A stretch of 61,181 bases of DNA, filler included, from Dugesia japonica (Eukaryota): assembly GCA_001938525.1 (NCBI GenBank). It is 6 parts of 6 records of this genome, joined end to end, with 100 filler letters (N's around TTAATTAATTAA, not from the genome) between each part and the next. Parts side by side here need not be neighbours in the genome. Positions count along the whole stretch, not along the records: positions 51,781 to 61,181 come from MQRL01470820.1; 5 more parts are not named here. One strand, written 5' to 3'. The position numbers and the translations under genes are program-made. Below are positions 1,801 through 61,098 of this stretch, in pieces. A model generated the notes under the pieces. It was given only the letters and a program-made list of their open reading frames with translations, had not been told where the DNA came from and made no database searches. Positions within the stretch are counted from its first letter, which is position 1; each line of letters starts with the position of its first letter.

Positions 1801-1839
1801 AAATTTAATAAGTTTTTTAGAAGGTTTCTAAGTGATATT

Positions 1840-1990: not shown

Positions 1991-2769
1991 TCCATTCAAT
2001 GGAACTCTGCAGTCTGCAAAACAGCCGTTCAAAGTAATTTTTATATATTTTAACTTGACATTTATTACATTTTAACAGGATTTTCTGTTGTAGACAAAAA
2101 ATGCATAATTAAAGTTTACAAAGATAGTTGAAATTTGAAATCCGTCAGTGAAATTCTAAATATGAACAAAAAATAATTATTTTTTCTAAAAAAATATACT
2201 TTTCGCGGTTTGTTGCAATATTATTTAGTAGTTGCAGTAAGAATTTACTGCTTGACGTACTTTGCTTCAAGTATTTGTATTTATATATCTATATATTCTA
2301 ATAAACATTACGTGTTTTACTCTTTAAATGAGATCATTTGACAATAACTATCTTTGAAATAATTTCTGGTTGAAAATAGTATAACAATAATAACATGTTT
2401 GTAATTTCATTAAAATAAAGAAAAGGCTTCGATCAAAAATAATAAAATTTCTTTGTATAGAAATTCAAATTTTCGACAATTGTCTTCTTCAGAAACCTGA
2501 TGACTTCTTGATAGATTCAACACAATAGATCTCTGTTACACAATTCTTTAGATTTTATCGAAATTTTATTGGTTTATTTTAATTATGAATTTTAATTTTC
2601 AATTAAATCTCAAAGTTTTTTTAATTAATTCAAAAAGTCTTTTTTGATATTTAAATTTTAGTTGTGTTTTAAATTAATTTTCAAAAATTGACATCGACCA
2701 CAAATTTATTATAAAACATTATAAAACCAATGTTCATGTACAACTGCCTTTAAAGCGGCATAAATACAG

Positions 2770-3215
2770 TTATATTATGCACTATTTATTCAAACAAATT
2801 GTTACCTGCGAAACAACGTCACCACATGAACTCAAACAAGTAGCTGCCTAACATACTTTTAGCTGTACCAAAGTGTCTTCTGTTCCTGCTTTTGGCGTAG
2901 TTCCATGAGATTTCAATATTCTGCGTATGATAACCTGTCATGGGATCAACAAAATTTTGAGAATGGTTGACAGTTAGATGTTTGTAGCCAAAGTTTTGAA
3001 TACCACTATAGGATGGTCACATATCCGATATAATAGTTGTTACTGGAAAAATTGCATTCTGTATAATTGATAACAATATTGCTGCAGATCTATCGGATAC
3101 TGTATATAAAAAACATTGTTTGGTTTCTCGGCAAATTCCTTCAAAAACCTATTGAGTTGGGAATACTTGACCAACATTGTTTTTTTGACAGCTAAACATG
3201 CTTTCATCTATCTAT
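2770..3215 (-). mobile_element. Merlin / ISXO2 (IS1595-like) DDE transposase remnant
   Basis: Manual translation: IDESMFS..VFEGICRETKQCFLYTVSDRSAAILLSIIQNAIFPVTTIISDM*PSY..HLTVNHSQNFVDPMTGYHTQNIEISWNYAKSRNRRHFGT..SYLFEFMW; internal stops. Confidence 0.9.
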
Positions 3216-4739
3216 ACCCATGTACCTATGTGCATATGTAGTAGTACCTATCTAGTAAGTGCATTAACCTATTTTTAACTGGCTAATTGCTGTTCCAAAT
3301 ATGTAGCTAGTGTGTGTTACCAATTATTGAGTTATTTGAGATTAATTAATAATTTTCAAAAAAATTGCGGGGAAAAAGTGGATAAGCACCGGAAATTTTG
3401 TAGAAGTTATATTAGACAGTTTCTTACAAATCAATATTATATAATTCCCATAATATTTCATTACTGTACTAATCTATTTATTAAAAAGTTTCGCAACAAT
3501 TCAAAAAATATTTTTGTGGATGCCCATGATTTGTAAACCTCTGTAATCATAACATATCATTTGATTTTTATTATTAATAAAATCAATTTAATTAAGATTT
3601 TATTAAAGAAAAATCCCATAGAAGTATTTCTCAAAATTATGGCTTCAAGAAGAGAATATTTTTTATTTGTAGAAAATTTAAAGTAAAATAATTGAAAAAA
3701 ATAGTTTATTTTCATTTAATCAAAAATCATGTAAATATATTTTTCAAATAAAATAAAAAATATATTATTATAATAATTGTTCAGTCATGTTTTTGGTTGA
3801 TATTTGACTGGATTTTTTAGTTACAAAAAATGCTAGACAAAATTTTAATCTATTCTTTTTCAATTTCACAAATATGAAATATTACCGATCGGTAAAATTT
3901 TGAAAAACGATATTCTAATTTAAAGTGAAAAGTTATTTATTTAAAAATATCTAGTTGTAATTGACATTCGCTCTACCAGAAAATTTATTGATTTATTTAT
4001 GGCCAAATTATTCTTATTAATTACCTTATTGATTTATATTGATTTTTCAATAATTATTTTTTGAATAAGTATGTTTGCATGTAAGGTTTTATCTTTCTTT
4101 ATTATTACTTGAATTATAATTTATAATTTGATGTACTACTGTTGACAAAAAGTAAATGGACTTTTTATTTTAAACTCGAAAGTCGTAGTCAAAAATGTTT
4201 CAGCCTTTAGTTAAATTTGCTATTAATATCAATTTAATTTATACATACCTTTGATATTGTTTCTTTGTTCATTCGAATAAATTTTTGACATTCGATTTTT
4301 TAAATGGGTTATATATAGTACTAGTGCGAGAATCTTATTCACGAGTCTGCGCGCTTTCACTACTCACCTTATTATTTTTCGATGTTTTGTTACTTATTAT
4401 CCACTTATCATTATAGTAAATAGCAGTAAGTTTTAGCATTAATCCATTTTTGTTAACAACTGCAAAATTAATTTCAAAGAGTTTCTCTGTTTAAGTTTTA
4501 AGTGTTTCATTATAATTTATGTAAATAATGTATTAATCGGATTGATGCCATGGCGCTTGCCTGTGGCTTAGACTTTGAAGACCCGCTTACGCCGGTTCTG
4601 TTTATATATTTAAGAACACTAAATTTTGTGTAAAATAAAATTAATTAAATACACTTTAAAATTATGCAGAAAGCATTTGGTAATTTATCACTATTGAGAA
4701 AAAACTACATTCAATTGATATAAGCTCGTCAGAGAAGAT

Positions 4740-5170
4740 CGTTGATCAATTTAAATCCACATTGTTCTGTTCATTCATCAACATTAATAATTGAAGAAAA
4801 TGTCAAAGAAATTAAAAGCAAAGTAATGGTAAATCGTTATTTGATGGTAAGAGAGCTTGCTAAAGATGTTGAAATATCAAGAGATTCAACAGACTTAATT
4901 TTATAGACAGATAATTTAAGGGTTTTGCATCATGATAGCGCACCTGTTCAATTAGCATTCGTATGATTCTCGCTAAACATTCAAAAGATATTGCTCCACA
5001 GGCGCTGTATTCTCCTGTAATGTTGCTATGTAATTTGTTCCTATACGATCGACTAAAGAAACCACTTTGAAGAACCCAATGTGAGTTAGTAAAATCAATA
5101 AAACAAATATTGAAAGATGTGCTTATGAATACAAAAATTATTTTGAAGCTTGAATTAAACGATGACATTT
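4740..5170 (+). mobile_element. Mariner transposase remnant, internally deleted
   Basis: HTH-like NRYLMVRELAKDVEISRDS joined almost directly to LHHDSAP...QALYSPVMLLCNLFLYDRLKKPL (HDNAP / YSPDLAPCD-like motifs). Confidence 0.8.
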
Positions 5171-5199
5171 GTAGTTTGTTCTTAATATAAATCTCTTTA

Positions 5200-7020
5200 A
5201 ATACAGATATTGCTTGAACTTTACAAATATGTGTACCGCTAATAGTATTGACTTGTCACACAGTACCTTTTTTCATGAGCTATCAAATATCTGGATCTAT
5301 ACGCTATTATCACTTTCTTTTCATTTTCGCATTGACTGCGCCGATGGCTCTAAAACTAGCGGCTTGTCTAACATCCACATCAGATTTTCCCATGGATATT
5401 CTAATACTGGAGCACTACATAATGAATCAAAACTGTTCTGGCATGCTTCTATCCAAACCAATAGTTTGCTGCAACCTCAAGTTGCTTCATATAAAAAACC
5501 TCCTATCTTTGAATAATCTTTTATGAAACTCTATGGTAGTTTGTTAGTCCGAGAAACAAAAGACGTTTAGAAGAACATTCTGAAATTATATCATTCGTAA
5601 TTTGCTGAATCTTAACTTCATTAGTACGTATATCAGCTGCACTCACTGTATGTTCCAAGAACAACACTTCGTTCTGTAAAACTTACATTTTTACGGGTTT
5701 ATTCTTAATCCCGAATCCATGATCCTGTTATCTCTAACATTTTGTCGTGATCTTCTAAGGTTTTTCAGTACTGCAGAATGTTGTCCAGATATACAATAAC
5801 TACAATGAAAATTAATCTCTTCAATAACTCATGCTTTAACCTTTGAAAAGTTGTTATAATTTGTTACGCTCTCATCTTCTTCTTTTGAATTTTCTATTTC
5901 TCCAGAATACACCAAGATTTAGTGTTCCTTCTACCAGACCAACTCTATAACATTGAACAAAATCTAAAATTATTAATTAAATATTAATTAAGTAAACATT
6001 TATTAATTAAACACAAATTAAACATCTGTCTTTTAACGGGCATTGATAATTTTTATGCAAATGTTATCCACAGCAATAACGTAGTCTCTTCTGGAGTTTC
6101 TCCTCACGAGGTTCAGAAAATCCTTTCTGTCTATTAAAATAATATCATGTCAAATATTTCATCGATACTGTTGGTTTAGGCCTCCTAGTCTTTATCTTAT
6201 TTTCCGACATCGCTGGTTGGATGTTACTCTTATATACTCTTTTTAGTAGCAAATTATTTATACGTATTTTCTGTTTACCCTGTCATACAGTACTATTTTT
6301 CATAAGCTAATAAATATCTGGATTTATGTCTGCTTATGTATAGTTTCACTACATTTTTATAACTCATCTCTTTTTGAATCATACAGATGTTTTACTTTTC
6401 AGCCATTCGTTGAAAATGTTCCTTATCCTTGTAAATCTTTATTAGTGATTTCATTTAATTTCGATATCAAGACGCGTTGTCAATGTTTCTCTCAACTTTG
6501 TATTTTTCATTATCTTTGAGTGTTTGTCCTTAATCATTTCATCTTTACTTAATCCCGATTTCATTATCTATCAGATTTCATATTCTGATTTTAAAGGTTG
6601 CAAATTTTTCTCTAGTCTCTAGTTTCGTCATTGAAAATTCTAAAATCAGCTCTGAAAATGATTTTTTATCATAAATGTGTCTGTGAACAATCAAATAGCT
6701 TCCTCCGTTTTAACCTCAATCATTTCGAGATCTTTTCAAAGAATCCTTGCTTCTTCTGACTATAGTAAATTTGAAATATCCAACAAACTGAAATCATTAA
6801 TGATAGTTCATTGCTCGATATCCTCGAAAAATTTGGAAATTTCTTCTGCGCCTTTACCATAATATTTTCTGACATTGAAATTGATCAATTTTTGTACTTT
6901 TTTGGTAATGTAATAAAATATATTTCTGTTGGCGCTGTTCTCTTGTTACTACAGTTCATAGTCCTGACGAGATTGCCAGTTACAATATCCCTGTCATCTA
7001 TTATAATTGAACAATAACCA
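5200..7020 (-). mobile_element. Degraded Gypsy LTR retrotransposon: gag (~6030-7000) with zinc knuckle, and RT/RNaseH remnant (~5200-5810)
   Basis: KYYGKGAEEISKFFEDIE gag-like start; decayed CCHC knuckle RYCCG*HLHKNYQCP at ~6037-6081; VIVYLDNIL (YxDD-like), FIKDYSKI, WIEACQNSFDSLCSAPVLEYP. Confidence 0.75.
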
Positions 7021-7200
7021 AATACTTAGAATATTTATTAAATATAAATTGTAACCTTAATTCTTATTATTGAAACAATGTTATTTTAAATATCCATAAC
7101 ATTATTAAAATAATGAAAAACATTAATTTTATTAAGGGTTTTATTTAAATTAATATAGAATTTTGAAACATTTCAAAGACAGACGGATAAGTGTTTAAAC

Positions 7201-8690
7201 CATGGGTATCTAACCTTTGACTGTTTGTGGGCCAAATTGCAAACAAAAAAAATTTCTATGCCACACATAAAATTTATTAGGGAAAAATAAAAAAGGATTT
7301 GTGTATTTCTATTAAAATTAAAAGGTTTGTATATAGTTCTTTAATTTGAGCAATGTATGCATAGATACGTACATATAAGTTTTAAAATAATAAAGGTTTC
7401 GTTTTATTTAATTTGGTTTTCATAAAAAATGGGAAAAATCACTTTAATGAGAAGGATGTATTTTTTTGCACAAGTAATTCAATATCGGGTTCAATAGACG
7501 AATTTGCTATTATTAATGCATATTCAAGATGTTTGTCAGTGAATTTTATCCTATTTTTGCTTTTTGCATGTTTCATTTTTGAAAATAATTGTTCACAAAT
7601 ATAGGTACTGCCAAAAGCTGAGAACATTCATAAAGTATGATTATGAAAATTAGGATATTTGTCGCGTGGTATTTAATCCTTTAAAATTCTAGTAATGAAA
7701 TATTTCCAAATTTGTCTTTCAGTTGAATGTCACTTTGCAGTTCAATGCATTCCATTTGAAGATACGTTATTTATATTAAGAGAAAATGGGGTAGAAAATG
7801 TTTTAAAATACTCTTCATTTTTATGAAAATCTTGGAATCTACTTTTAAACTCTTGAATTAAATTAAAAATTAATACAACATTTTTTTCATAATAATTAGA
7901 ATCCATAGGCTGACGTGCAGCCAAAGTACTGAAATGTGTAAAATCGTTTATTTTTATCTGATTGCGCAAAAAAAATTTACTTTTTTCAAATTTTATTACT
8001 GTCTGAAACAAATTGTTTACAAATTGATTTTTTTCGTTGAAGTCTCAAATTAAAATCATTCAAATTTTCTGTAATGTCCACTAAAAAACCTAAATCTAAA
8101 ACCCAATCTCTGTCTTCAAATTCAGTAACAGCTTTTCCTTTTGTATTTATATCTATTTTATTTCAGTTCTCAAATTGTAAATTCTTTTGAGCAATTTTCC
8201 TTTACTGAGCCATCTTACTTCTGTAAAATAAATAACATCTGCAAATTCAGTGTCCATTGCTTTAAAAATTCCTGGAATTGTCTATGATGAAATCTTTTTG
8301 ATCTTATAAATTTAATGGTTTTTATAATAACGCTTACACACTTTCCATTTTTAAAAATTTTCCACATGATTGCTCTGACGTATAATACAATGATGGATCA
8401 TCAAGATTATATTCCCGGTAGCAACAGCTTCATTATGAACCATTTTAATGAGTCCTCCTTTTTACCAACCATTGCAGGTGCTCTATTGGTTATGATAGCT
8501 GATAAATATTTTATAGACAAGGAAAGCATTTGCATGGTCGTTTTTAATGCATCAAATAAATCTGTAGACGTGGTTGTGTTTTCTAAAGATTCTAAAGCAA
8601 CCATTTCTTTAGTGATGTTATAATTTTCATCAATTCCTGGGATAAAATTCCTAATTGTGCCGTATCGGAAGCATCAGTACTGTCGTCTAA
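7201..8690 (-). mobile_element. hAT Buster/SPIN-type (GTF2IRD2-like) transposase remnant with one terminus
   Basis: LDDSTDASDTAQL, TNRAPAMVG, YFTEVRWLSKGK, FGSTYICEQLFSKMK motifs; terminus CATGGGTATCTAACCTTT..GTGGGCCA at 7201 preceded by nnnTAnnn-type target GTTTAAAC (7193-7200). Confidence 0.92.
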
Positions 8691-9299
8691 GTCTTAGACG
8701 ATTTAGACTTTGCATTTTCATGTTCAGTCTGGCATTTTGAACAATAACTAAAGTCAGTTTTGACATACCATCAGCATAAGAATGATGTTACCCTTTTCTA
8801 TATATTCAATACAAAATCATATTCTAATAAATCGTTAATCAAAGTCTGAAACTGCAGCATAATTGGTTTTTTGAATTCTTTATAAATTCTAGAGCTTTGT
8901 AATCGGTTTTCGCGACAAAACTTTTCTCATAAAGATAATGCCGAAAATATCGAATAAATTCATAAAAAGCCAAAAACTCATTCCTGGTCACGCAATATCC
9001 TTTTTCATGAGCGTTTTACTACCTTGATTCATATACAATAACGACTTTCATACCGTTTTGTGATTTGCTCAGTACAGCACCAATTCCCGGAAAAACTGGC
9101 ATCAGTATCCAGCATGAATTGACCTTCTGAATTAGGATACCCCAGTACAGGAGAGTTACAAATGGCTGGCTTGATTTTCTCAAAACTCGTCTTGCATTCC
9201 TTTGTCCACATTATTATGTGCTTTTGACTTTCGGTAGCAGCATATAAAGATGTAGCAAGTTGCTAAAATTCTTTATAAATTTTCTGTAACAATTTTCAA
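8691..9299 (-). mobile_element. Gypsy RT-connection/RNaseH remnant abutting the truncated hAT element
   Basis: WTKECKTSFEKIKPAICNSPVLGYPNSEGQFMLDTDAS, then HSYADGMS (NADxxS-like) motif. Confidence 0.9.
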
Positions 9300-9399
9300 N
9301 NNNNNNNNNNNNNNNNNNNNNNNNNNNNNNNNNNNNNNNNNNNTTAATTAATTAANNNNNNNNNNNNNNNNNNNNNNNNNNNNNNNNNNNNNNNNNNNN
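9300..9399. other. Artificial contig-joining spacer (44 N + TTAATTAATTAA + 44 N)
   Basis: Six-frame-stop 12-mer at 9344-9355 inside a 100-nt N block; identical block recurs four more times. Confidence 0.97.
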
Positions 9400-10125
9400 A
9401 AATTATATTTTGTATTTTTGAAATAATTAATAATAATCAATAATAAAACTAATAATAATAATCAAAAATAATAAACAATAAAAATAATCAAGAAACATAA
9501 TCAATAATAATAATAAATAAAATTATGAATAATAATAATAATCAATAATAATAAATAATATTAATAATAATAATAATCATCAATAATCGATAGTGTAGCA
9601 CCTTCGTAGTGATTTTATTATTATATTACAATGAATTTAATCAAATATCAAAATAATAATATCAAAAAATAATTTCTAACTATTGATAACGAAACTCACC
9701 AAGTCATATCGTAATTTNNNNNNNNNNNNNNNNNNNNNNNNNNNNNNNNNNNNNNNNNNNNNNNNNNAAATTTGAAAATTGTATTGAAAAAATGATTTTA
9801 TCAATTAAATAATTTGAAAATTATTTGTAAAAATTCAACAAAATATTTTAATAAATTTAGAATTTTACATTTAAACAAAAATTATTATTCCAATTAAATT
9901 ATGAATTTTATTTTCAAAAATAATTTCTAACTATTGATAACGAAACTCACCAAGTCATATCGTAATTTAATCATTTCAGACAACTCCNNNNNNNNNNNNN
10001 NNNNNNNNNNNNNNNNNNNNNNNNNNNNNNNNNNNNNNNNNNNNNNNNNNNNNNNNNNNNNNNNNNNNNNNNNNNNNNNNNNNTCTATTAATTTATAATC
10101 GATTGCTATCAATAATTTTTCATAA

Positions 10126-22353: not shown

Positions 22354-22635
22354 TTAAATGAAGATTTTTGAGTGATTTTGTGTGCTGAATGTAACATGTT
22401 TTGTTTCTTTGGATAAATGGTATGGTTTGGTTCTTCTCAGGTTGACTTTTGTTTCTTTTTCATCAATAATTAAAGTTGCGACATCTTTTTCAACTTTGAT
22501 TAATTTATATGGGCCTGAGTATTTTGATTCAAAGCCTTTTGCGAAAGATTTTTTTACTAATGCATAGTCTGTACTGAGTACTATTTTATTATGGGGTTGT
22601 GATTTGTTTTTCTTTAGGATACTCTTCATTTCCAA
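22354..22635 (-). mobile_element. Gypsy integrase C-terminal GPY/F module remnant
   Basis: FESKYSGPYKLIKV...VNLRRTKPY. Confidence 0.75.
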
Positions 22636-23649
22636 TGTTTTCGTTTTGCTATTCTTGTTTACTGTCTTTCCTGTGTCTGTTCTTTTATTTCCTTTTATTT
22701 TTGGAATTATTGTTTGTTTACCCCATATTATTTGGCTTGGCCTTTGGTTATTGGTTGAATTTGGGAATATTTGCTTTGTTCATCGTTTTTAATTGGCTTA
22801 ACGTCTACTCAAATTATTTTAATTAATTTTATACACCTAGTTAGTTTAATTTATTTTCTTATTCATCTTTCTTTTTTAGCTTTATAGATTATTTTCTTTA
22901 AAATATTCTCTCATAAATTATTCTTTTCATAAATTCTCTTCATTTTTAAATCAGTGTTTCTATTTTTTACTGTTTATTATTAGTTGTATTCTATGAATGC
23001 TTGTCATACATTCCCTCCTCAAATAATTTCGTTTTCTTTCTATGGCTCTAATTTGACCAAGAGATTGAGAGGCATTCTATTTATTCAGGTTTCAGAATCA
23101 TAATTTATTTGATACATTTGTTTGTACATCATTGGAAATTCAGTTATTTTATTTAAGATTTATTTAAGTAGATATATAATAGTGCTCTGTGTTACATAAT
23201 AACCACATTATAGTTGCGTAATCAATACATAATGATTATGTAATAATCACATAACCACATAATTATGAAACACCTGTTACGTTTTATTATGTAAACATCG
23301 GTACGTAGCGATGCTACAGCATTACACAATCATCGATTTATTACTCAATCACAGCGTGTCAATAACACAGTCACTGTGTAGTAATCACGTTATTATGTAA
23401 TTACAGTTTACCGATGAAGTAATCACGGGGGGTTTATTTTANCACCATTTTTTGATTAAATAATCATATCACCTGTATTCACCTGATGTTTACGTAATCA
23501 ATGCAAGTAAATAGATGTGAGCGCATAAGATCGCCCCCACCCTAGCGAAAAAACATAACTGATCTGAAAATGTGAGCTAATGGTTATCGTGGATTTTGAA
23601 TTTTAAGATTTTTGATCGGATCAAAAAATTTTATTTTTTTTAATGTTTT

Positions 23650-44731: not shown

Positions 44732-47051
44732 TATATATAAAAAAAGGATTTATTTAATTAAATTTTTTTACTTTTTTGTTTATAAATATCGTTTATAAAT
44801 ACTAAAATATCATTTACATTTTTTNATTTAAAATTAAATTATAACTACAAAACAACATTATTAAATAATCATCCACGTAACGTCATCTATTGGTTTCTGA
44901 ATAAATGAAAAATGTTAGTAGGGCCCCGTAGTTTGAAATTGCTTATGGGCCTAAAATATCTAGTTTAGCGTTATTGAATTATGGTTGGATTCATTAATAA
45001 CCTTAGAAGAATTTCAGCTTAAAGAAAAATATACCAAGGACTATAAATGTGCAACCAGAAGAATGTCTTGATACATTTCAAATAGGAAAATTGAAAATAA
45101 ATAATTAACTTTCGATAACAGCAGAAGTTGGAAAACATTAGCTGAAACAGTCATTAAAAGCGGAAATTTTGGTGGAAATGGAGGTTGTACGGGAAAATGG
45201 AAAAATAATGAATTAAAGAGAGTGACAGAATCGGAGGATTATACGATCGAAAAAGAATTTGGAAGAATGGTGATAAACCTACCGTTAGCTGTCGCTAAAT
45301 TATCCATTTCGTTTTCCATAAAAAGAGATCGTAAAAATAATTGAATTAATTGGTAAAATTTATTAATATACTCTTGTTTGTTTTTCAATTCTGAATAATA
45401 AAACAAATACAGTGAATAATAATTGAAAAAATATATCTCTCTTTTCAGTGTTTCTTTACAAGGTCAACAAATATTGATATATATTTTCTCGAATAGTTCA
45501 TTTATCAGTCCAACTTTAGTTTAACTTTTTTACCTTTATCGACAACATCTTTATTTTCGGACATAAATCAAATCCTAATATAATTCTTTTCATTTCAGCT
45601 ACCAAATTCTTCATATCAAAATTATTTTGTATTCTTTTGTTTGAATATTCATTATTTTAACTTTTGTAAAATTAGTGAATAAATTTGGGATGAAAACTTG
45701 TGATTGTGCTAATTTAATTAATATAGATAATTGTCGAAAATTCGAATTACTAACAACAGAACTAAAACAACAAAACAACATTTTGATTTAAGATTTTTAA
45801 TTTATAGAAACTTGAAAAATGCGATTGACGGTTAAGTCCAATAATTATTCTCGCAATCATTGTAATTATATGACCTTCATTAATCAATAGATTTTCAATA
45901 AAAATAGAAATAAATGTACTATTTGTTTAATTAGACCAAAAAATATTCGAAAAAAGACGTCTACAGGAAACAATTTCACGATCTTACTAAACTAATTTTT
46001 ATTGCAAAATAAATTCAATAAAATTAGATTAAATCAATTAATATGCTGATATTACAATATAAATAATTAATGAGAAACAACTATAAATTTTGGCTCAAGT
46101 TTATAATGCTAGTAATTTGGAAGAATACAAAGAAATTAATTTTTATAATTGAATTTTTCCCATTAAATTTGTAATTTTTACGCTATCCTTNNNNNNNNNN
46201 NNNNNNNNNNNNNNNNNNNNNNNNNNNNNNNNNNNNNNNNNNNNNNNNNNNNNNNNNNNCTTTCTCTTTATTTAATTCACTTGAAAAGGAAATTTGTTTT
46301 TAATTTAGTTATTTGTTAATAGTTTCACAATAAACAGCCCACTCACGTATAGAAATTTCAATTTTGCAATAAATTATATATTACTCACTAACTATAAACC
46401 AAAAAAAAAATTTACATTCTATTCTTTTTCAATTTTCATACATCTCTCTTTAATATTGAAATTGAAACTCCAATAAATATTTGACATCTATAATTTTCAC
46501 TCCCAGTAATTCGAAATTTGCAACAAAATTACTAGATTGCATCGAAAAATAAATTATAAATTACGGATTGAATCTCTTATCTTAATTTTTCAGAGAAAAA
46601 AACGTAGAAAAACTGCATGTATGTACATAAGCATAAAATAAAAGTGATAAAATAACCATTTTGAATAACTGCTTGTGCCATTCGCGTTTCCAATGTCTTT
46701 TTAATATTAAGAAATACACACTATTCCTTTAAATGCTGTTCCAGCTGTGAGGAAGCCAATTAGCCTAACAAATGTATGCGTGTTGTGTAGTCATCTAAAA
46801 TTTTCTAGCCACGATCATGATATACACACATCCTCGCTGTTATAACTGAAATTAAGGTTGTTGTCGAAACTGAAAAATCACATTCAACTGATCTATCGAT
46901 TTAGAATCAGCTGTGTTGATTTGATGCTAATATTAGAATAACGCATTTACTATGAAATTTTGAGTGTTGCATTTTATTAAAACGGATTTATCCACTTGAG
47001 CTTGAGATTAATGATTGTTGAAATTTTTACCTTCAAATTACTGTCATATCT

Positions 47052-47177: not shown

Positions 47178-50100
47178 GTAAGTTGTTATTTCATTTATGA
47201 TTTCTATTTAAATTTTGAAAAATATGAATGTTTCATTTTAAAATTTTTCATATTTAATTGTTGAATTTCATTGATTAAATTTGTTTTAATTTTAAAATAA
47301 TAAGGAAAAATTACCATTTTATTTTATTTTAACTGTCTAATTAAATAGAAAATCCATTTTTAAATTGAAAAATACATTAATTGTTATTATTTTCAAGTTA
47401 CAAGAGTTTTCTATCAATTTTTAATAGATAATAATATCGATTTTCGATAAGAATCTTTATAATATTAATAATGCCAAATATATACTAATCGTTGTTCATT
47501 AGATATATAATGGTACAGAATAAAAAAAAATAATCCATTTAATTCTATTTGATAAATTAAATTTGTTTATTTGAAGTTAATACAACACATTACAATTTTA
47601 TTTTTTTATGGAGTTGTTAATGGTCACATTGATTAAGAAAAATTTTATTTTTCAAAGCTAATTTATCAAATTTAAATTGTTTGTTTTAATTAATAATTTC
47701 AATAACATCGACAATAACAATTGAAAAAATTAAGTTTTTTAATGATTTAAAATTTTTTCATTCAAAGACTTCGTACATAATAAATTCTGTCGATATTTAT
47801 GGCGTTTAATAATTCATTAATAATAATAATAAATCTTTATTAAATCTCCAGACATTTTCATTATTACCAATCTTTTCATCAAATTGCATTTTTCAGCATT
47901 TCAATTAGCAGTTACGAAAATTAAAAAATACATTCTCCATCTTATGGTAGTTGTTAACATCATTATTAATAATGAATTTATCGTTGTAAAATGTAATAAA
48001 ATAATTATCTAAATCGATAAGAACGTAAAATATAACTAGATAATTGAAGTCAATTTTCATTAATATTTTCATTCATTCAACTACTAAGATTTCATAACTA
48101 GTATTATTTCAAAGTACTGTCTCGTATTTATTTATATTCTAGTATCATAGAAAACATTAATCGATTATATTTATTAGTTTTTTAATACAAATTTCATATT
48201 AAATTTTCTCCTAATTGCATTATTTGATCATTTTTCTATATTTAATAATTTATTCAATCGTTGAAATTCTACTTTTTATATTATATTTTCAGTAATTTAT
48301 CGATCTTAAATATTTCAAATATTTTAATANNNNNNNNNNNNNNNNNNNNNNNNNNNNNNNNNNNNNNNNNNNNNNNNNAAACAAAAACTAAACAAATAAT
48401 GTAGAAAGATAAATTGATCAATGCTGGAATATTTTTATCATATCAACTGTAAAGTCAAATAATTACTTTAGAAATCATTTAAATATGAAAAATGTGGTAT
48501 TGAATGTTTATTTTGATTTTGTTAAAAAAAAACTTGGAATTAATCTTTTTAAATTATAATTGAAATAATTTCTCACTATAAATTTTCAACATTTTATTTC
48601 TAGAATTTTTAATATGAAATTCAATTTGTTTAAATGATACATTGGTTTCATTTCAATTTACCATTTCTCTGATTGAGTACAACAATGTATTGATACATTG
48701 CAAATGTCATAAATACCGAGTTCGCCTACATTTCTGCTTTTTGTCTGAATCAAAATACGTTAAGACTTTTTCACNNNNNNNNNNNNNNNNNNNNNNNNNN
48801 NNNNNNNNNNNNNNNNNNNNNNNNNNNNNNNNNNNNNNNNNNNNNNNNNNNNNNNNNNNNNNNNNNNNNNNNNNNNNNNNNNNNNNNNNTTATTATTATT
48901 ATAATCATTTAATACATCAATTTTAATAAAAAACTTTTAAATAATGTTATATAATAATATATTTATATTAAATTCATTTGAAAAATTTACTTTAAAAAAA
49001 CACATTTTCAAAATAAAATTTATTTAAAAAAATCTATTATTGTTAAAAATTGAAATCGATTTCTCAAAAAAAAACAAACTCTAATTAATTTTCATATATC
49101 AATACTGAGAGTAAAGTAATTATATTTCATTACTTCTTTTGATCTTAGTGATTACAAATTTGTCAAAAAATTGAGATTAATTGTAAACTTATTTAAAATA
49201 TTTGTATGTAATACAAATCAGGAATAATGAAAGAAAAAATGTTTTCTTAATATGTTTTATATTACTTTTAATTAAATTATTTGTTTATTTGAAACAAAAT
49301 GTTATTAAATAATTTATTGTTAAGATATTATTGTTAATTAACTTTGAGTATTGGTGTCTGTCAACATTAATATTAGAATATTAAAATACAATTAATCTTT
49401 GTTTAATAAATTAAAATATTTAATTAAATTCAAAGTAACGATTAAAATGCTTTGATAAAAGTTTTTAATTCAATGAAATCTTATATACGATCAATGGTTA
49501 AGTCCAAGAATTATTATCGCAAAAATTGTAATTGTAAAATAAAAATAACACTGTAACCTCTTGCTTCTGATTGATTTCTGATTATTTTCACAATTTTTCT
49601 CATTTTGCGCTTCCTCAATTTTTGTTTTCTATTTTTGAAATTGAAAAAGAAATAAATCAATTTTATTTGTAATTAATTATAATATAATTTTATCTGTCTA
49701 TTCAGAATTCCAAATTCAGCCATTTGTTTCCTGATTTTTGTTGTACTTTTTATTCTTGATAGTACATTTGTTTTTTGATAAATGTTTTGAAATCTTAAAG
49801 GATTTGGTTTTATATCATTTTATTTTATAAATACTATATAATTTGGTAATAAACAATATAAATATTATAATAATAAGCGATCTTTTATTCAATAAGTGTA
49901 ATATTCTTGTTTTTTTATAAAAATTTATTTTCTTATACAAAAATGCATGTATATACATACATATATGCATGTATATATGCTCTATAATATATAAATAATA
50001 ATAAAATCAAATAAAATGTGAATAGTATTTATTGACACAATTATGAGATTTTACAAAATAAAACTGAAAATCCTGGCTGTAAGAATGATTCACAAGTTTT

Positions 50101-50760: not shown

Positions 50761-51659
50761 ATGAATCAAGCAAAAACTTCAAATAATTTCAAATAATAAT
50801 TTAAAAGTGGTAATTTCAGTGTCACAGAAAAACAAAGTCTTAGTGCTACTAGAATATGCAGCAATGAATACTTGAAACGATTACTCTTTGATAATTCGGT
50901 ACAGACACAGACGGAGCTTATAAAACAATTGGAAATAACTCATCAAACTGTTTCTATGAGTAAGATTCAAAGAGAAAGAAAATAGATCTTGTACGATCTC
51001 AATCCAACAAAAATCAACGAATAGAAACCTAATTTTCTCATCTTAATAGACAGCGTCAAAAGTCATTCTTGTGAAAAATTGTGACGGAAGATGAGAAATA
51101 GATACAATATAATAGTTAGAAACGCAAAAAATCATTGGCAAATCCCGGAAAACCATGAAAATCGACTGTAACGTCTAATGGTTTCGGAAAAGAAGTAATT
51201 CTCTGTATCTGGTGGGATATTAATAGCGTGCAGTATTATGAGCTATTGAAACTCGATGAAACAGTTACTGCTGATTGCTACAAATACCAATTAATCAAAT
51301 TATGTTAACATTTGGAGCTGAAACGTCCGTTTAGTTGAAAAGAAAAACGTCCTTTGAAATTGTTGCATGACAACGCTAGGCCACATATTGCTTCAAAGAC
51401 AAAGGATACCATAATGAAACTTGGCCGAGTAATCTTGGAGCACTCAGCGTATTTACCAGATATTGCCACAACTTATTATCTTTTGTTTCAATCGTTGCGT
51501 ACCTTGTGCGATACACACTTTCAATCAATGGATGATATCTGAAAATGGCTTGATGGCTTTATTGAGTTCAAACAACCAGAACTTTTTCAAAATTGAATTC
51601 ATCTGTTGCCTGTAAAATGGCTTAAAGTTATCAATAACCACGTCGATAACTTTGATTGA
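50761..51659 (+). mobile_element. Mos1-like mariner transposase pseudogene
   Basis: FKSGNFS, IVTEDEK*IQY, VILCIWWD..YYELL, LLHDNARPH, HSAYLPDIATTYY (YSPDLAPSDY-like), WLKVINN. Confidence 0.95.
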
Positions 51660-51681
51660 AATATTTGTGTCACTTTTTTAN

Positions 51682-51780
51682 NNNNNNNNNNNNNNNNNNN
51701 NNNNNNNNNNNNNNNNNNNNNNNNTTAATTAATTAANNNNNNNNNNNNNNNNNNNNNNNNNNNNNNNNNNNNNNNNNNNN
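51682..51780. other. Artificial contig-joining spacer
   Basis: TTAATTAATTAA at 51725-51736 flanked by N runs. Confidence 0.97.
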
Positions 51781-52236: not shown

Positions 52237-52842
52237 TTATGAGTATTTTGTGGTACCCGAAATTTGCTGAATTTGGCTCTTATAATATTGGTAACTTTTA
52301 TCGTATTTATTTAAATCTGAGTTTCGGTTTTTTATTTTATAATTTAATTCTAAGTATACGTTTTCTGTGTTATATTTTATCTTATGACTTGCATTTGGAC
52401 TAGAACTTTTTATTTTAGAGAATGTTATAGATATTGATTTTATTAAGTTAGTAGTAGATTTGGTTGTACTTGTTTCTGTAGGTATTTGTTTCCATAAGAT
52501 ATATTTTGGATATTCTGGAAATGTTGTTAGAGTAATAGTTTCCAAAACGCAAGCTACCCAATCAAAACCGCCAATCCAGTTGGCAGTGATGTAATATTTT
52601 ATATTGGGTTCTAACCCATAAAGTTCAACAAATCTTGTTTTATTGCTGATTTTAGTCCCTACTACTACGAATAAGTAGGTAGGTCCATAAAACCTTTTAT
52701 GCGAAGGAATTTTAAATGTGAATTGGCGTGGATATATGCCTATTTCTACTATATGCCAAGATAACGTTCTATGGGATAGATACGTAAATCTGCTAAACAA
52801 CTTGTTATGATTGCTAATAATATTACTAACATGATTGTCCAT
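52237..52842 (-). CDS. Accessory ORF downstream of integrase: FN3-like domain plus Ser/Thr-rich stalk
   Basis: Longest ORF in the window (201 aa); TLSW...VELYGLEPNIKYYITA resembles the FN3 LxGLxPxxxY signature. Confidence 0.55.
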   Translation of the reverse strand: MDNHVSNIISNHNKLFSRFTYLSHRTLSWHIVEIGIYPRQFTFKIPSHKRFYGPTYLFVVVGTKISNKTRFVELYGLEPNIKYYITANWIGGFDWVACVLETITLTTFPEYPKYILWKQIPTETSTTKSTTNLIKSISITFSKIKSSSPNASHKIKYNTENVYLELNYKIKNRNSDLNKYDKSYQYYKSQIQQISGTTKYS

Positions 52843-52868
52843 GAATTTTGTGATTGTGATCTGAGATT

Positions 52869-55800
52869 CTATCTATGTGGTTTCTGAGTTATTGGCTCTG
52901 TTTCTGCTAGTTTACATCTATTGATTACAAATATAGTAGGATCATTATTTTTATTTTTAACTATTTGTAAATTCGTGTCCGTTACTTTTACTACATCAAA
53001 GCGTCCTTTAAAATATCTAGCTAGATTGTTTGTTAGACCTTTCTTTGAATTCGGAGTCTTTATTCGCACTTTATCTCCAACTTTAAATTGATGTGGTTTT
53101 GCATTTCTGTCGTAGTAATCTTTATACTGTTCTTGTTTGAATTTTATTCTCAATCCAGTTTGTTTATACACTTCCTGTAGTCTTTCCTGAATTTTCGTAA
53201 CATATTCCGGATTGTCCGTATATTGTAACACAATAAGTTTGAATGTGACACATCGGATTATGATTCTCTCTCAAGTACATTAAATAGAATGGTGAATATC
53301 CAGTAGCTTCATTTTCTGTCGTGTTGTTGGAAAATAATGCTGGTTTAAGGAACAAGTCCCAATCATTTTTATTTTTGTTTACAAATACTGATAATCTGTT
53401 ACATAATGTGCGGTTGAATCTTTCCACAAGACCGTCTGACTGTGGGTGGTATGCTGAAATGTTTATTTTTTAGATGTTAAACATTTCATTAACTCTTTTA
53501 ACTGTTTCGCTTAAGAAATTTCTACCTCTGTTTGATAGCAATTTTTTGAGTGCGCCATATTTAAAAATAATTTTTTATACCAACAATTTTGCGATTACTT
53601 CTGCAGATTCGTCTTTTGTGGGAAATGCTTAGGCCCACTTTGTAAAATAATCGCTGAATACCCAAATATGTTTGTTAAATTTTATTGTAGTTGGTAATTT
53701 GCTTAAGAAATCCAGAGCGCATATTTCCATTGGTGGGCTTGGTACTGGCATTGGATGAAGTGGCACTTTTGTTTTTGTCCCAGTATTTTTTCTAGTTGCG
53801 CATATTGAACAAGCTCTACACCATTGCTTTACATCATCTTGCAAATTTTGCCAAAAATATTTTTGTAATATTCTAGATGCTGTTTTACTACTTGATAACG
53901 TCCACCAAGAGCACCATGATGATATTGAAGAAGTAACATCTGTTTTAAGGAATCAGGTACAACCCATAAGTTTCTCCCATGTTATCATATACAAGTAAAT
54001 CCTTATATATTTTATACTTTGTATTTTTGTTAAGGTGGTTTCGTATTGATTTGATGTTTTTATCTTTCTTTTATACATCCGAGAAAGTTTTATCATTTAT
54101 GCCTTCAGTTATTATAGGCATTGATTTTGTTGTTTCCACCTCTTTTATGTTAGGAATTCTTGATAGTGCATCGGCATTTCTGTTGGCTCTTCCAGGTTTG
54201 TATTTAATTTTTATATTCATATCTTAGATTTTCATAGCCCATTTTAATATTCGGCTGGATGTATCCTTGTTTTTCCATAAGCCTTCAAGTGGTTTATGGT
54301 CTGTTTGTATAGTGACCTCTGTTCCATAAATGGTCGGTCTAAATTGTATAAACGCATAAATGTATTGCGCAACACTCCTTTTCTATTGTTGAATATCTAG
54401 GTTCTGCTTCTTTTAACGTTTTACTTGCGTATGCAGTTACGTTATCTTTGTTTTTCTCTTCATGTCCAAGAACTGCTCCGACTGCATATTCACTTGCATC
54501 TGTCATGATTATAAATGCTTTGTCAAAATCTGGGTATCTCAATATTGGCGCTGTTATTAATTTTTCAATTAACGTATTGAAAGCGTTTTGCTGATTGTTT
54601 CCCCATAATTTTTGTAATTTTAATGAATTTTCATTGATTTCTCGGTAATTATTACGCCTTTACTTTCTTCTTTAGTTTTCAAACCTTTTGTCAGTTTCAC
54701 TAGTGAGGCAGATATATTACCAAAATCCTTTATAAATCGTCTATAATAATCGACTAGTCCTTTATAACTTAGGAGTTGTTGTACTGTTTCTTGTATTGGC
54801 AAAGTTTTTATTGCTTCTATTTTATCTGGATTTGGTTGCAAACCTTTTGAGGAAACTATACGACCTAGAAATATTACCTGTTCTTCCGCCCATTTGAATT
54901 TTGTTGGCTTTAGTTTTATATTTGGGTTTTTGTAATCTACACTTCATAGTTTATTAAATGTTACTCGAATGATTCTGATGCGATCAAAATGGCATCCATA
55001 TAGATAATTACATGTTTTACATCTATCAAAACTGTGTTCATTAATCTCTTAAATGAAGCTGGTGCGTTTGTTAAATCGAATAGCATTCTTGTAAACTCGT
55101 ATAAACCATCTTCTGTTACAAATGCAGTCTTTTCTCTATCCTGTAATAACACATTTAGACCATAGAAATGTTTGCTGGCGTCGAATATAGCAAACCATAA
55201 TGCTTTACTTAATTTGTTAAATTGCTCCTTGTATCTTGCTTAGTAACATCATTTAATTTTCGATAATCTACGCACATTCTGATATCTCGATCTTTTTTCT
55301 ATGCTGGTACTACTGGTGATGCCCATGGAGAGAAAATTTGTACTATTATTCCATTATCTTTTAATTCTTTTATTTGTCACTTGACTTCCTCTCTTAATTT
55401 ATATGATGCAACATATGGCCTTTTCCTGACAGGTTTGGCGTTACCAGTGTCACTGGCATGTTGTATTATATCTGCTTCACCAATATCGAATTCATGTTTT
55501 GCTAAAACATCCTAATATTTATCTATTACTGCTTGTAATTGTTTTCGCTCATGCGCTGTTAGATTGCTATTAGTTATTTTAGTCTTATCTGTTTGTTTAA
55601 TTCTGTTTGTTTAGGTTTAATTTGATCGTAAATTAGTGTTTCCTTTACTATTTGCTTTTGTTTTATTGGATTATTTTTATTAAATGTAATTTCATTTATC
55701 TCACATTTCTCGTTTTTTACATGTAGTTTACCTAATTTCATACCTTAGAAAAGATTAACATCTTGATTATTATAATTGGCGATTCTAATAGGCATGGTTT

Positions 55801-56350
55801 CCTTTTTTGGAACAAAACATTCGAGTACTATTGATATATTAAATTTTTTCACTAATTGATTATTTGGTTCAAAAAAATAGATATTTACGCTACGGAACCC
55901 TAATTTTACAGGCATTATACATTCACGTGAATATTCTATTTTTGTATTTGACTTTAAGTATAAATCATTTTTTGCTTTTTCATCATTTGTGGGGGGTGAT
56001 TTTGATAATTTATTATTTTGTAAATATATAACATATCCTGATAATTTTGACAGTAAATCCATTCCCAAAATTTAGTCTTGTACCTCTTGGTCTACGACTT
56101 GGAATGAGTGTTGTATATTTTCATTTTCTAAGGTAATATTGCAATATATTATATCCTTTATGGCTCGTGAATGATTTTAATTCCTCTGATAGGCTAGGAT
56201 CAAGATTATCTTTTTTTTTTGTTAAGAAATGTCTTTAATTATTAAGCATGCTGATCCGGTGTCTATTAATGAAGGTATATTATATTCATTTATTGATATT
56301 ATCATTGTGGGTGTGGGAGTATCTCCATTTATTACATATATCTCGTTTGA
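52869..56350 (-). mobile_element. pol: Gypsy pol pseudogene (protease - RT - RNaseH - integrase)
   Basis: LIDTGSA (56252-56263), SPWASPVV, RMCVDYRKLN, EKTAFVT..LYEFTRM, YMDA (mutated YxDD), TDASEYAVGAVL, NADALSR, CRACSIC, HPQSDGLVERFNRTL, FKGRF. Confidence 0.97.
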
Positions 56351-56499
56351 TTTTTGAGGTGTGGTATTTCTTATTAATTTTTCGTTTTCAAGGTTTGATT
56401 TTAATTTATTGACTTTATCTGTTTCTGATATATAAGGTTTTATTGTCGTAATTATTCAGTTCTATATTCTCATCTCTATTTGATAGATCGATTGTATAT

Positions 56500-57440
56500 G
56501 TTTGATTTTGTCTTTCTAATTTTCTGATTTTATCATGGTGTTTTTGCATGATTAGATGTTTTACAATAAATGTACATATGCATGCTGCTAGTTTTCATGT
56601 TGTACCAAATACTGAATGCAATTTTCTTAATGATAATAATTGATGGCATGCTAATTTTAACAAAATAAACAAATAATGTATTAACAAAAAAACGAAAATA
56701 CACTGCCTATTGCTTACGCTTTGCCTAAACATTTATCGATAAAACTTTGTATGACTCTTTTGCAGTGATCTACGTGCAATAATTACTCGAAGTTGAAATC
56801 GTCTGCTTGGCTTCCTTTATGAATTCTATCGATCATTATTGATATTATTTTTTTTATTACTATAGGAAACAGAACATGCTTTCTGGATTTTTCTTTCTTT
56901 CTGAGTAAATATGCCGGTATTTTCCATGTTGTATTGTCTGTCAAATACCATTTTCCTTCAGAGTTCCATCATCTCTAATGTTACTGATTTTTGTGCTGTT
57001 TCACAATCCGAAGCGGTAATCCAAACGTTGTCGTTTATTTTGTATAATGGGTCGAGAAGATTACTACGTTTGTTCATTTCTTTGGGTTTATAATTTTCAT
57101 CTGTTAGAATTCGTGTTACTGGTAATAAAAAGACCTTTTTATTATTATGTATCACTGGCAGTTCATTTGTACATTCCGGATGATCTGTTAAAGTAACTAT
57201 TGCTAATTTACATTTGAAAGTTACCAATGCTTCACCCACAATTCTTCCAAAGGTTCCTGCTTCTTCGAATAATAATGGTGTCATCTCGAATAGTAGCAGC
57301 TAATGCCATTTTTGTACTTAACCGTTCTCTATTTATTTTACAGTCACTTGATATTGTTTCATCATATAATTTTTCCATTTGATATATCAAATTGTGATAT
57401 GCAAAATCAAGTTTATTGTTTAAATATGAAACTTATTTGA
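56500..57440 (-). pseudogene. env: Class III fusion glycoprotein (herpes gB / chuvirus G-like) envelope, C-terminal half, located between gag and protease
   Basis: YLNNKLDFAY..DCKINRERLSTKMALAA..GTFGRIVGEALVTFKCKLAIVTLTDHPECTNELPVIHNNKKVFLLPVTRIL..PLYKINDNVW..NTGIFT..LFP, then a hydrophobic AIGSVFSFF membrane region. Confidence 0.8.
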
Positions 57441-57499
57441 TGTCCAATTTTTTCTGCTTGATCTTTAGAGCCTTTGATGAGTTCATTAGATATATTTAA

Positions 57500-59617
57500 A
57501 CCGTTAAAGTTGGTTTTCTTTACTGCGCCTGGTGGTCTACCTCTTGATCGTCTTGTAGTTTTCTCATTTGAAGGTCCTGGTTCATCTGTATGTCTTGATT
57601 TCTTTGGTTCTGTATTTCCGTTATATTTTTTAATTGAACTGATTGACTTGTATTACCATTTCTTATTTGAGCTTGTTGATTATCTACTGGAGATTCTGGT
57701 TCTCTAGATATTTTCTTCGGTGGAATATGTATCTTTTCGTTTTCATCTTTTATATCCTCTAATATATCTTGATCCAGAAGATCGATTATTCCATTCATCG
57801 CTTCCTGCTGTCCCTCAGATAATTTATTTACTATCTTGAATTTCACTTGGTTATCGTTTTCAGGGATAATTCCGTATTCCATTATTCTTTTATTTTCAAT
57901 TAACTCCTGATTATAGAAATACAATTTTATCTCGTCGTCTTCTACTAATGTTATCGGTCACTTTGCTCTTATTATCTTTCGTAGTTTTTCCGTTTTAGTA
58001 AGCGCATATGTGCTTATTATTAGAGCTTTTATATTACAACTAACTGTGGATGCTTGTATTATTATGGGTTTCTGCCACTGTGTTGGCTTTAACAAATTCG
58101 CTATAATTCTTTATTAATTCATTTATTAATTTATGACTCTCATCGAATTCTCTTCTGCCTTTTACTTTTACTAAGGAAATTATTAATGTTTTCAGTTCGC
58201 GATAGCTTATGAGATATTCAATTATATCATTTAGGTATTGTATCAATCTAAGTGCGTTTATATTCTGTTTAGTCATTTCATGCTTTAAAATTTTCCAACA
58301 TCGACTTTTGTTTGCTTTCATCTACTTCCTCACCTAAATCTACTTTAATTGATTCGTAAGTGTTTATCTCATATTTACTTTTATTTTGTTGTCTTTCCTG
58401 CATTCTTTCACATCTGATGCGTAATTCTTGTAATTCCGCTCTCATACTTTCGTATTCATCGTTTTGAGCTACTTCAATAACATTTAAGCTTTTTGTCTCA
58501 GATTCAAATGATACTTCTTTCTTTATTATACTTCTGGGATCTCGCAGCTGGATTCGGCACACTCTGGCTAAGTGTCCACATTTGTTGCAGTTATAAAATG
58601 TTATCTGTTCTCTGTTATTTACTTGATCTCTCCGTTCGTTTGAGTAGTTACTGTTATTTCTGTCATTATAGTTCAACGTGGACTTATATTATATCTATAG
58701 TTTGATTCAGATTCTCTTTTAGGTCTATATCCCTTATTTTTAAATCTAGGGCTAGAGTTTTTGTAACCTCTATTATTATTCCAGATTTTCCTTTGACTGG
58801 AATTTCTATTCATATAACCTTTCCCCGGCGTATTTGTATATTCATAATAACTCGTTGGACTTAAATTTCTATTATATTAATTTTTTTTATCCATATAATT
58901 ATTTTTGCTATTATCTTAGTGAATGTGATATGCTCGTTTTATATAACCCCATTATGTCGGTTTTCTATCAGTCGGCATGCTTGTTTCTATGGCATAAATT
59001 AGTTTATCTTTAGTTTTATGATTATAATTTGTCTCAATCCTTCTGGCTTTTGTCATCAACTGTTCAATATTTTTGTACTCCACTGTTATCAGAACAGATT
59101 TTATTTTTCTAAGTTTTCTTCTCAGGAATTAATCTTCTATAACATTTTCAATATTACCGCCTTCTCCAAAGGTCATTTAAGATAATTTTTTTAAAATCGT
59201 ATAAATATTCACCTAAAATTTCTGTAGTTCCTTGCATCCTGTTTTGAAATTTTTGTGTACATATTCTTTCTACTTCTATGGGAACTTTTATAAGCTTTCT
59301 GAGCTCTTTTATTAGTTCGTTAAAATTCTTCGATGGATCTGTTAAATTTTTATAACTTTGCAGTGCAAAGCCCTTTAAATACAATGGTACCATTTAGCCA
59401 ATTCCTCATTTGTCCAATTGCATTTTATTAAACAGATGGACATTTCTTCAAAATATTCATCGAACTCTTCGGGTTTCCTGGAATACTTTTGTAATAGTAA
59501 ATAGTTCATTTTATTTCGATCACCAAATCCAAATAAAGGAGTAATATTAAAACCATTTTCTTGTTCATTTATATTTTCGCTATCTTTACGTCCAATTACT
59601 ATGTCTCTGCTTCTCAA
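57500..59617 (-). pseudogene. gag: Gypsy gag (capsid-like, zinc knuckle, long coiled-coil/disordered extension with AT-hook-like RGRPP)
   Basis: KYSRKPEEFDEYFEE..W..LYLKGFALQSY..FQNRMQGTTEILGEY; FYNCNKCGHLARVC; RSRGRPPG near 57525-57550. Confidence 0.85.
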
Positions 59618-60113
59618 TTTATATATAATATTATCGTTTGTATCAATTGTTTGTATTCTATATTATGTTCAATTTATTTTAACTATTTGTGTTTGTGTAA
59701 GATTTTATATATTTGTAAAATTATTAAACACACAACTATATGAAGAATTTAAAATCTTTATCAAATGGAAAATATTTACCCGTCATTTTAGGTTCTCAAA
59801 GTTTCCGCAGGTTTGTATTCTTTTATTTAAACTTTATACGTTGGGTTAGGAACTATCTGTGAATTTCGTTTCAATTCACAATTAAAAATGTTTTTTCAAA
59901 ATTCAGGTTTCGTTTCAACCCTTTAAAACTGTATTACTTTTAAAGAATTTACTCGTAACTTATACAAAAGGTTTTTATCTTATCTCTTTTTATCTTATCT
60001 TATCCTTATTTTTTTTAAAATTTTATTCAAAAATCTTATATGGGAATTTTGTTTTAACTCTGAATACTCAAATACTTTTATCGAATTAATTTATAAATTT
60101 TTATAAATTGGTT

Positions 60114-60130
60114 CCTCACTTGGGGCACCA
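60114..60130 (-). promoter_or_regulatory. Primer-binding site complementary to an elongator tRNA-Met 3' end
   Basis: TGGTGCCCCAAGTGAGG lies 4 nt after the LTR end ...TCAACA; resembles the complement of CCUCAC...GGGGCACCA. Confidence 0.75.
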
Positions 60131-60134
60131 ATTT

Positions 60135-60800
60135 TGTTGAGATGAATTCGGGATTATAGCGAACCCAAGTCAACAGTTGTGTGAGCGTTTTAGTTTTGAT
60201 AAGATTTTATGATAATCCCAGAAGAAGTATAATAACTGATATGATTTTCTATGTAACCTTAATATAGTTAATATATATGAATGAGATCAATACAAATATA
60301 CTATATAGTCAGCCATTTAATAAATAATGAATGAATTACTTTTAAAATTTTATTGGTAACTCAAATTAAAATTATACAGCGGAATTATCAGTTCAAGTAA
60401 ACTTCGACTTCACTTGAGATATCTAAAAGTTGGGTGAAAAAATGTATTTTACCACTCTATTTATACTTTTTCCAGAACATGCAATTACCTTGGAGAAATA
60501 ATATATTTTATAAAAATAACTAATTTTACAAAATAAATATAAACATGTGTTTTAAAAATAACATATTTTATTAAATAAATAAAAATTGTTTTATTTAGAA
60601 AAATCCATAATTATTATAAAATTTACCAAAAATAAAGTTTAGAATAGTAAATAAATAAATTCCTTTTTACATTGATTTATAAGTAAATAAACTGATTCTT
60701 CATAATAAATCAAACCAATTGGTTTCTTTACAGTTGAAAATTGATTTTTTTACAATCGACTATTTTTGCATAATAGATCAAACAAATTGATTTCTCTACA
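60135..60800 (-). repeat. 5' LTR of the env-bearing Gypsy element (outer boundary uncertain)
   Basis: CA end adjacent to the PBS; TATAAATA at ~60458-60465 and AATAAA at ~60349-60354 on the minus strand. Confidence 0.65.
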
Positions 60801-60879
60801 ATCAAATATTGGTTGAAATAAATAAATTGAAGCTGGTTGTTTGAAGAGAACTCACTAAGATGAGGAGAGAAGAAATTAT

Positions 60880-61098
60880 ACTTTAAAGATTTTCTGAGAT
60901 AACGACAATAAATGTTTATTTCACCTTATTCAGAAATTCGGTGGTATATTTATAGCGTCGAGGTATATTTATGGACACACAAAGAAAATGGTATATGAAC
61001 TAAAAGTGGTAGGTGATCCAGTTGTACAACATTCTCGGCAACAACCAATGCATTTAGAGAGGAAATTTGAATATATGATAAAGAATCTAGTTAACATT
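60880..61098 (+). mobile_element. Second Gypsy RT N-terminal fragment, opposite orientation
   Basis: GHTKKMVYELKVVGDPVVQHSRQQPMHLERKFEYMIKNLVNIGDISKCN. Confidence 0.75.

Follow-up and report, generated by a model that had tools for sequence, protein, structure and literature searches.

A decayed Ty3/gypsy retroelement of Dugesia japonica with the rear half of a gB-type envelope between gag and pol

Organization of the locus

The 61 kb stretch of Dugesia japonica DNA considered here (61,181 nucleotides from assembly GCA_001938525.1, six parts joined end to end; hereafter the window) is AT-rich, with a GC content of 0.15-0.36 per kb, and is strewn with (AAT)n runs, N gaps and transposon remains. 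Its minus strand carries a decayed copy of a repeated gypsy-type retroelement in which the rear half of a gB-like envelope glycoprotein (env) lies between gag and pol. Along that strand a primer-binding-site (PBS)-like site is followed by gag with a CCHC knuckle, the env remnant, protease (PR), reverse transcriptase (RT), RNase H (RH), integrase (IN) and an extra open reading frame (ORF); the part from gag to the extra ORF measures ~7.4 kb and the whole element ~8.5 kb. This gene order had been proposed in an initial annotation together with a set of motifs (central-helix Cys, FKC, ELPV, TRIL, DTGS and YMDA), all of which can be read in the window. The features are as follows, with the basis of each in brackets; P numbers denote related proteins.

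60131..60800, minus strand: candidate 5' long terminal repeat (LTR) region, directly upstream of the PBS-like site and without a 3' partner in the window
60119..60130, minus strand: PBS-like site, begins TGG
58280..59660, minus strand: gag remnant with a capsid-like part, an Asn/Arg-rich linker and one CCHC knuckle at ~58590, with stops and frame changes (reading, match to relatives, profile)
57829..58074, minus strand: likely ubiquitin-like domain between gag and env (profile from P0017, P0009 and P0007)
57520..57545, minus strand: likely internal deletion break at ~57526, just past an RGRP motif (spacing in P0017, RNA read ends)
56436..57526, minus strand: C-terminal half of a gB-type (class III) envelope glycoprotein, with stops and frame changes (PF24664, match to P0001)
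55721..56314, minus strand: aspartic protease (DTGS), then a spacer domain homologous to that of relatives (Pfam, match to P0009)
54155..55580, minus strand: RT (YMDA) and RNase H, broken (RVT_1, E 3.3e-11; RT_RNaseH_2, E 3.3e-28)
52870..53980, minus strand: integrase (H2C2, core and C-terminal part), broken (Integrase_H2C2, E 1.6e-8)
52237..52872, minus strand: extra ORF with a signal-like hydrophobic stretch, possibly an FN3-like domain, and an S/T-rich stretch (hydropathy, Atlas clusters)

The copy is dead, as had been annotated: 19 stops occur across the 10 window pieces that align to P0009, frame shifts separate most of these pieces, and the RT reads YMDA.

Gag and pol

The order PR-RT-RH-IN is that of Ty3/gypsy elements (Metaviridae), and the best of 33 PDB matches to the window integrase is Ty3 Gag-Pol (E 3.5e-18), which the colinear relative P0009 also matches (E 4.9e-119). 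The protease matches Pfam aspartyl protease families at E 0.008-0.015, and protease and spacer together match residues 1083-1282 of P0009 (E 2e-11). Judged on sequence, the pol region is that of a Ty3/gypsy element, in agreement with the initial annotation. Membership of BEL/Pao (Belpaoviridae) was also considered and is rejected, no BEL-type family having been found in 6/6 frame translations at E up to 1; we take the marker families of that group to be Peptidase_A17, DUF1759 and DUF5641.

Gag homology lies at 59390-58900 (i-E 5e-6 and 0.007 with a profile built from relatives), and the remnant aligns to residues 68-135 of P0010. It had been proposed that gag runs straight into env; instead, ~350 aa of further coding sequence lie between the CCHC knuckle and the env remnant, including the likely ubiquitin-like domain. 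In a six-frame search of the 61 kb, the ubiquitin-like profile gave 58074-57829 as its top match (i-E 0.025, against 3.6 for the best reversed-sequence control). This match is only modest, because the best reversed control of a Bcl-2 profile reached i-E 0.029 and is as strong; the window segment itself has no direct Pfam or PDB match.

The first nine nucleotides of the PBS-like site complement tRNA 3' ends given as Met_CAU or 'others' in the available part of supplement 1 of Chary & Hayashi (eLife 2026, PMC13524379), and no tRNA 3' end listed there matches all 12. Summed contig depth across the 5' end is 143-533 (60162-61050), as against 13-21 in the last 3' bin.

The envelope remnant

When the minus-strand frames of 56100-59700 were searched, one of the three matched PF24664 (Monjiviricetes_fusion) at E 4.2e-24, with 84.9 bits against a cut-off of 27, over positions 360-626 of the 653-position profile. 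The central-helix Cys and the motifs G..GE...FKC and EC..ELPV...FL.P.TRIL can be read in the same segment, which is 42-47% identical to residues 368-554 of P0001, the sole match among 120 candidates and one that aligns to the window from residue 368 only. By sequence family the window env is a gB-type (class III) fusogen, as was claimed for it, and Pfam, tblastn and the gag profile together place it between gag and a Ty3/gypsy pol. The initial annotation set its extent at 56500-57440; env does occupy that interval, and its upstream limit was drawn too short, homology reaching 57495 by tblastn and ~57520 by eye. The membrane region that was also described is present in weak form, with hydropathy peaks of 1.64 and 1.78 in two frames.

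A match to herpesvirus gB or chuvirus G had been anticipated for this segment. The fold was predicted for the natural relative P0003 (29-48% identical to window pieces) and not for the window fragment itself: an AlphaFold model built from a 111-sequence alignment (pLDDT 83) returned herpesvirus gB as every listed Foldseek PDB match, the best at E 4.9e-14 and a TM of ~0.35. A gB-like fold is therefore predicted for the relative, and by extension may apply to the env of the window element.

Relatives and polyprotein organization

With P0001 as query, 876 proteins scored at E 0.001 or better, the best 150 being listed; 17 relatives were chosen from the top 26 matches, with long ones favoured. Env and protease share one ORF in 11 of the 17 (P0010 among them on a weak match) and env and RT in five, while a Pfam gag marker precedes env in four. 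P0022 is a single ORF encoding CCHC-env-PR-RT-RH-IN, in P0009 a CCHC pattern (residue 31) precedes env-PR-RT-RH-IN within one ORF, and the env-pol polyprotein P0153 reaches 4844 aa. From env through IN the window is colinear with both P0005 and P0009, and its spacing of ~136 aa from env anchor to protease compares with 117-207 aa in all 11 relatives measured. Ahead of env, P0017 has weak Pfam matches to ubiquitin (E 0.031) and Bcl-2 (E 0.055), and P0003 and P0023 have weak Bcl-2 matches, all below Pfam cut-offs. The single polyprotein put forward in the initial annotation is borne out in intact relatives (P0022 and P0009), the window copy itself being too decayed to show it.

We consider it very probable that the element is a dead Ty3/gypsy copy with a gB-type env between gag and protease, that the front half of env was likely lost by internal deletion, and that the product of intact members is likely a single polyprotein from which capsid, envelope and enzymes are cleaved. 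In such members gag and the ubiquitin-like domain, joined in some relatives by a Bcl-2-like one, would stay in the cytosol, while an internal hydrophobic signal just before env would direct the ectodomain into the endoplasmic reticulum, where host signal peptidase would free it. The env membrane anchor would then bring the chain back to the cytosol, and the element's protease would release PR, RT-RH and IN. This processing route is supported by relatives, because hydrophobic stretches flank env in them both before and after. The gB-type trimer could then fuse particle and target-cell membranes and so allow spread from cell to cell. The window copy itself makes none of these products.

It may be instead that env is an ORF of its own, expressed from a spliced or frameshifted message and merely situated between gag and pol, outside any polyprotein. 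This seems unlikely given the 11 of 17 chosen relatives that join env and protease in one ORF, the in-frame env of the planarian Burro elements (PMC6431247, as far as available) and an env-protease spacing in the window that falls within the relatives' range. Decay does hide the frame relations in the window copy, and PMC13524379 treats GAG, ENV and POL as three ORFs, the word 'polyprotein' being absent from the available main text, both of which would suit a separate env.

Several observations on the relatives stand apart from this question. P0009 (HBK71150.1), 2627 aa long, is a gypsy env-pol polyprotein filed under a Flavobacteriaceae metagenome-assembled genome as a hypothetical protein, and is likely animal DNA binned into a bacterial genome. 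Several aspartic-protease domains occur in one polyprotein in P0005, P0006, P0007, P0014, P0015 and P0153 (up to seven stretches in P0153), and in P0005 and P0153 one such domain follows the integrase. In P0099 a chuvirus-type glycoprotein ORF continues directly into a gypsy RNase H domain.

The missing front half of env

An env profile built from relatives matches the window with its rear half alone, its front half giving no match there; the complete ectodomain with signal and fusion-loop domains, present in relatives, is absent from this copy. Loss of the N-terminal half had been recognized at the outset and placed at 57450-57500, and the break is better put at ~57526. The motifs RGRP (residue 585) and TN[YF].G (residue 1073) lie 488 aa apart in P0017 and a few residues apart in the window, and eight RNA reads from related copies (run X9) leave the window at 57526 with a median loose length of 86. 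By eye, the front half of P0001 resembles the Platyhelminthes C1a domain I-II rows in the available part of PMC13524379, and the window env begins where those rows end. An internal deletion of ~1.5 kb (~490 aa, a size taken from the distant relative P0017) is likely the simplest reading of these comparisons; it probably removed the signal and domains I-II, and possibly the Bcl-2-like domain as well.

Rather than a one-off deletion, the half env could be a fixed trait of a subfamily whose members, non-autonomous or non-infectious, propagate with their fusogen truncated. The single reading frame kept across the break would fit such a lineage, as would the failure to recover a close full-length copy among viral and metagenome contigs. 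Yet the eight reads of related copies depart from the window exactly at the junction, most long relatives include the front half of env, and the half that remains is without domains I-II, where PMC13524379, in its available part, places the fusion loops; we regard this explanation as slightly less probable again than a separate env ORF. It is highly improbable that env was inserted separately, whether as a chuvirus-type endogenous viral element or as a piece of a BEL/Pao element, or was joined chimerically to a gypsy element devoid of env. In favour of such an origin, the assembly is gappy and repeat-rich, env starts abruptly and none of the listed contigs covers the stretch from end to end. 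Against it, gypsy polyproteins that share the gene order and spacing are the best relatives of env, the one named chuvirus glycoprotein stands much further off (21% to P0001), env depth resembles pol depth, and a repeat search found no repeats flanking env. A nested insertion is rejected.

Copy abundance, transcription and contrary evidence

In run X1 the summed contig depth, which is not a copy number, is 4969-7344 over env and 1735-9692 over the gag-to-IN body, as against 21 in the 3' flank bin, and the repeated family to which this copy belongs spans env and pol alike. Depth over the extra ORF (180-930) is below that of the body and above that of the flank.

A number of results weigh against a dead Ty3/gypsy copy whose intact kin make one polyprotein. 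The LTR that was initially annotated has no paired repeat in the window: blastn of both ends and a direct-repeat search gave only short AT-rich matches, and the 3' end meets an N gap. A polypurine tract is likewise missing, with no purine run of at least 11 between 52900 and 51780. The negative searches for an LTR pair and a polypurine tract are inconclusive, because the 3' end of the element enters an (AAT)n microsatellite and then the N gap at ~51680-51780. A profile search found no Bcl-2-like domain in the window element, and a single ORF is unreadable in this copy because of the 19 stops in its 10 aligned pieces. The closest polyprotein relatives (P0005, P0009, P0153 and P0154) are only 46-52% identical to the window in IN, no close full-length copy was recovered among viral and metagenome contigs, and no listed contig spans the element.

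The RNA evidence, from two runs of which about a quarter each was read, points the same way. In X9, 513 reads matched, none of them at an identity of at least 99%, three at 95-99%, 60 at 90-95% and 450 below 90%; the 70 reads in X12 divide into one, one, four and 64 across the same classes. Almost all of these reads come from diverged relatives rather than from the window copy. Most first mates map to the minus strand. With the majority of stranded library types this would indicate antisense RNA, the orientation here being uncalibrated. The public runs listed as containing the stretch (seven rows in three studies, all under a single species label) include none recorded as RNA, which is no evidence on transcription.

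The ORF after integrase

Past the integrase, a signal-like stretch at 52850-52770 (hydropathy 2.33) lies in the frame of the integrase C-terminus beyond an in-frame stop, and the extra ORF uses another frame. This 211-aa ORF draws Atlas FN3 clusters at 0.85-0.87 with low recognition, so that an FN3-like identity is a lead only. In P0009 and P0005 the same ORF continues after IN with a signal-like stretch and an L.P.T.Y.I motif that looks similar by eye, and it ends in a membrane segment. For the window ORF, none of 52 candidate homologs scored, no PDB match and no FN3 Pfam match were found, and single-sequence prediction gave no usable fold (pLDDT 33.5).

It is tempting to speculate that in compact gag-env-pol gypsy proviruses the region after integrase codes for a second surface protein, with an internal signal, an FN3-like ectodomain, an S/T stalk and a membrane anchor, whose role would be either to partner the gB-type fusogen in attachment or to act as a receptor decoy; such elements would be two-glycoprotein retroelements. 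We hold this to be doubtful, though less so than the alternatives weighed above, and it is weakened because a two-sequence profile of the relatives' tails gave no match to the window ORF and the fold prediction failed. A limited search of partly available literature found no description of an FN3 protein in such elements, which does not show it to be unpublished. Should the FN3-like membrane protein prove genuine and common to these elements, it would offer a clue to how a lone gB-type fusogen locates its target cell.

Other features of the window

Just past the N gap, a decayed mariner-type transposase occupies 50900-51660 on the plus strand (PF01359, E 2.9e-15). Other decayed gypsy RT/RNase H fragments, matched by relatives, lie on the minus strand at 8719-9288 and 5248-5854, and a minus-strand ORF at 22354-22779 resembles a gypsy integrase C-terminus by eye, with no Pfam match. 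Two further minus-strand ORFs have weak profile matches: that at 11510-11839 matches the TBP family (E 0.00094, below cut-off) and is possibly a piece of a virus-like DNA element, and that at 25165-25494 matches Endonuclease_7 (E 0.00048) and has a likeness by eye to what we take to be a polymerase segment of Polinton/Maverick type. A dispersed short repeat family, found at 1700-1821, 31652-31773, 32476-32597, 45817-45870 and 49437-49558 and also on the other strand, is probably a miniature inverted-repeat transposable element or similar.

Comparison with known elements

BEL/Pao elements with a chuvirus-like glycoprotein were reportedly described by Dezordi et al. in 2020; these share the fusogen class, whereas the window element differs in its Ty3/gypsy pol and in having env before pol. 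In gene order and env class the window element agrees with nematode elements in which the positions of env and pol are swapped, said to have been described by Sacco et al. in 2022; both reports are cited in PMC13524379.

The premise of the initial annotation that a gB-type env is mainly a BEL/Pao feature is not supported, and its suspicion that similar elements might already be reported was well founded: the window element joins a class whose gag-env-pol layout is in print for flatworm, nematode and bryozoan elements (PMC6431247 and PMC13524379, each available in part). According to Chary & Hayashi, ENV is exclusively of gB type in the errantiviruses of Nematoda, Bryozoa and Platyhelminthes, whose gene order is GAG-ENV-POL, with fusion loops placed in env domains I-II; six Schmidtea mediterranea elements (Smed_errantivirus_1-6) are given at 45, 215, 3, 8, 1 and 1 copies. 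These 'ancient errantiviruses', especially those of Platyhelminthes C1a, resemble the window element in their Ty3/gypsy pol, in a gB-type env between gag and pol and in forming a multicopy family, and differ in that the window copy is dead and without env domains I-II. The available main text mentions neither a polyprotein nor ubiquitin, Bcl-2 or fibronectin domains. To this published class the window stretch adds one decayed copy.

A parallel to the cargo order comes from the planarian Burro elements, in which an in-frame env follows ubiquitin/SUMO-like and BCL2 domains, lies between gag and pol and matches mononegavirus glycoproteins, in what was called the first such case (Arkhipova & Yushenova 2019, PMC6431247, available part). 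The order gag - ubiquitin/SUMO-like - BCL2 - env - PR of Burro/GYPSM1 recurs in P0017, on weak Pfam matches, and partly in the window. This order, with the by-eye likeness of P0001 to the C1a rows, also points to a planarian-type flatworm as the likely host. Burro exceeds 30 kb, as against ~7.4 kb from gag to the extra ORF in the window element, which has one CCHC knuckle and no Pfam match to MATH, BIR or ankyrin; on its compact size and the absence of that cargo, identity with Burro proper is rejected. The natural relatives, with compact single-ORF gag-env-pol polyproteins and a Burro-like cargo order, link giant Burro to the smaller flatworm errantiviruses.

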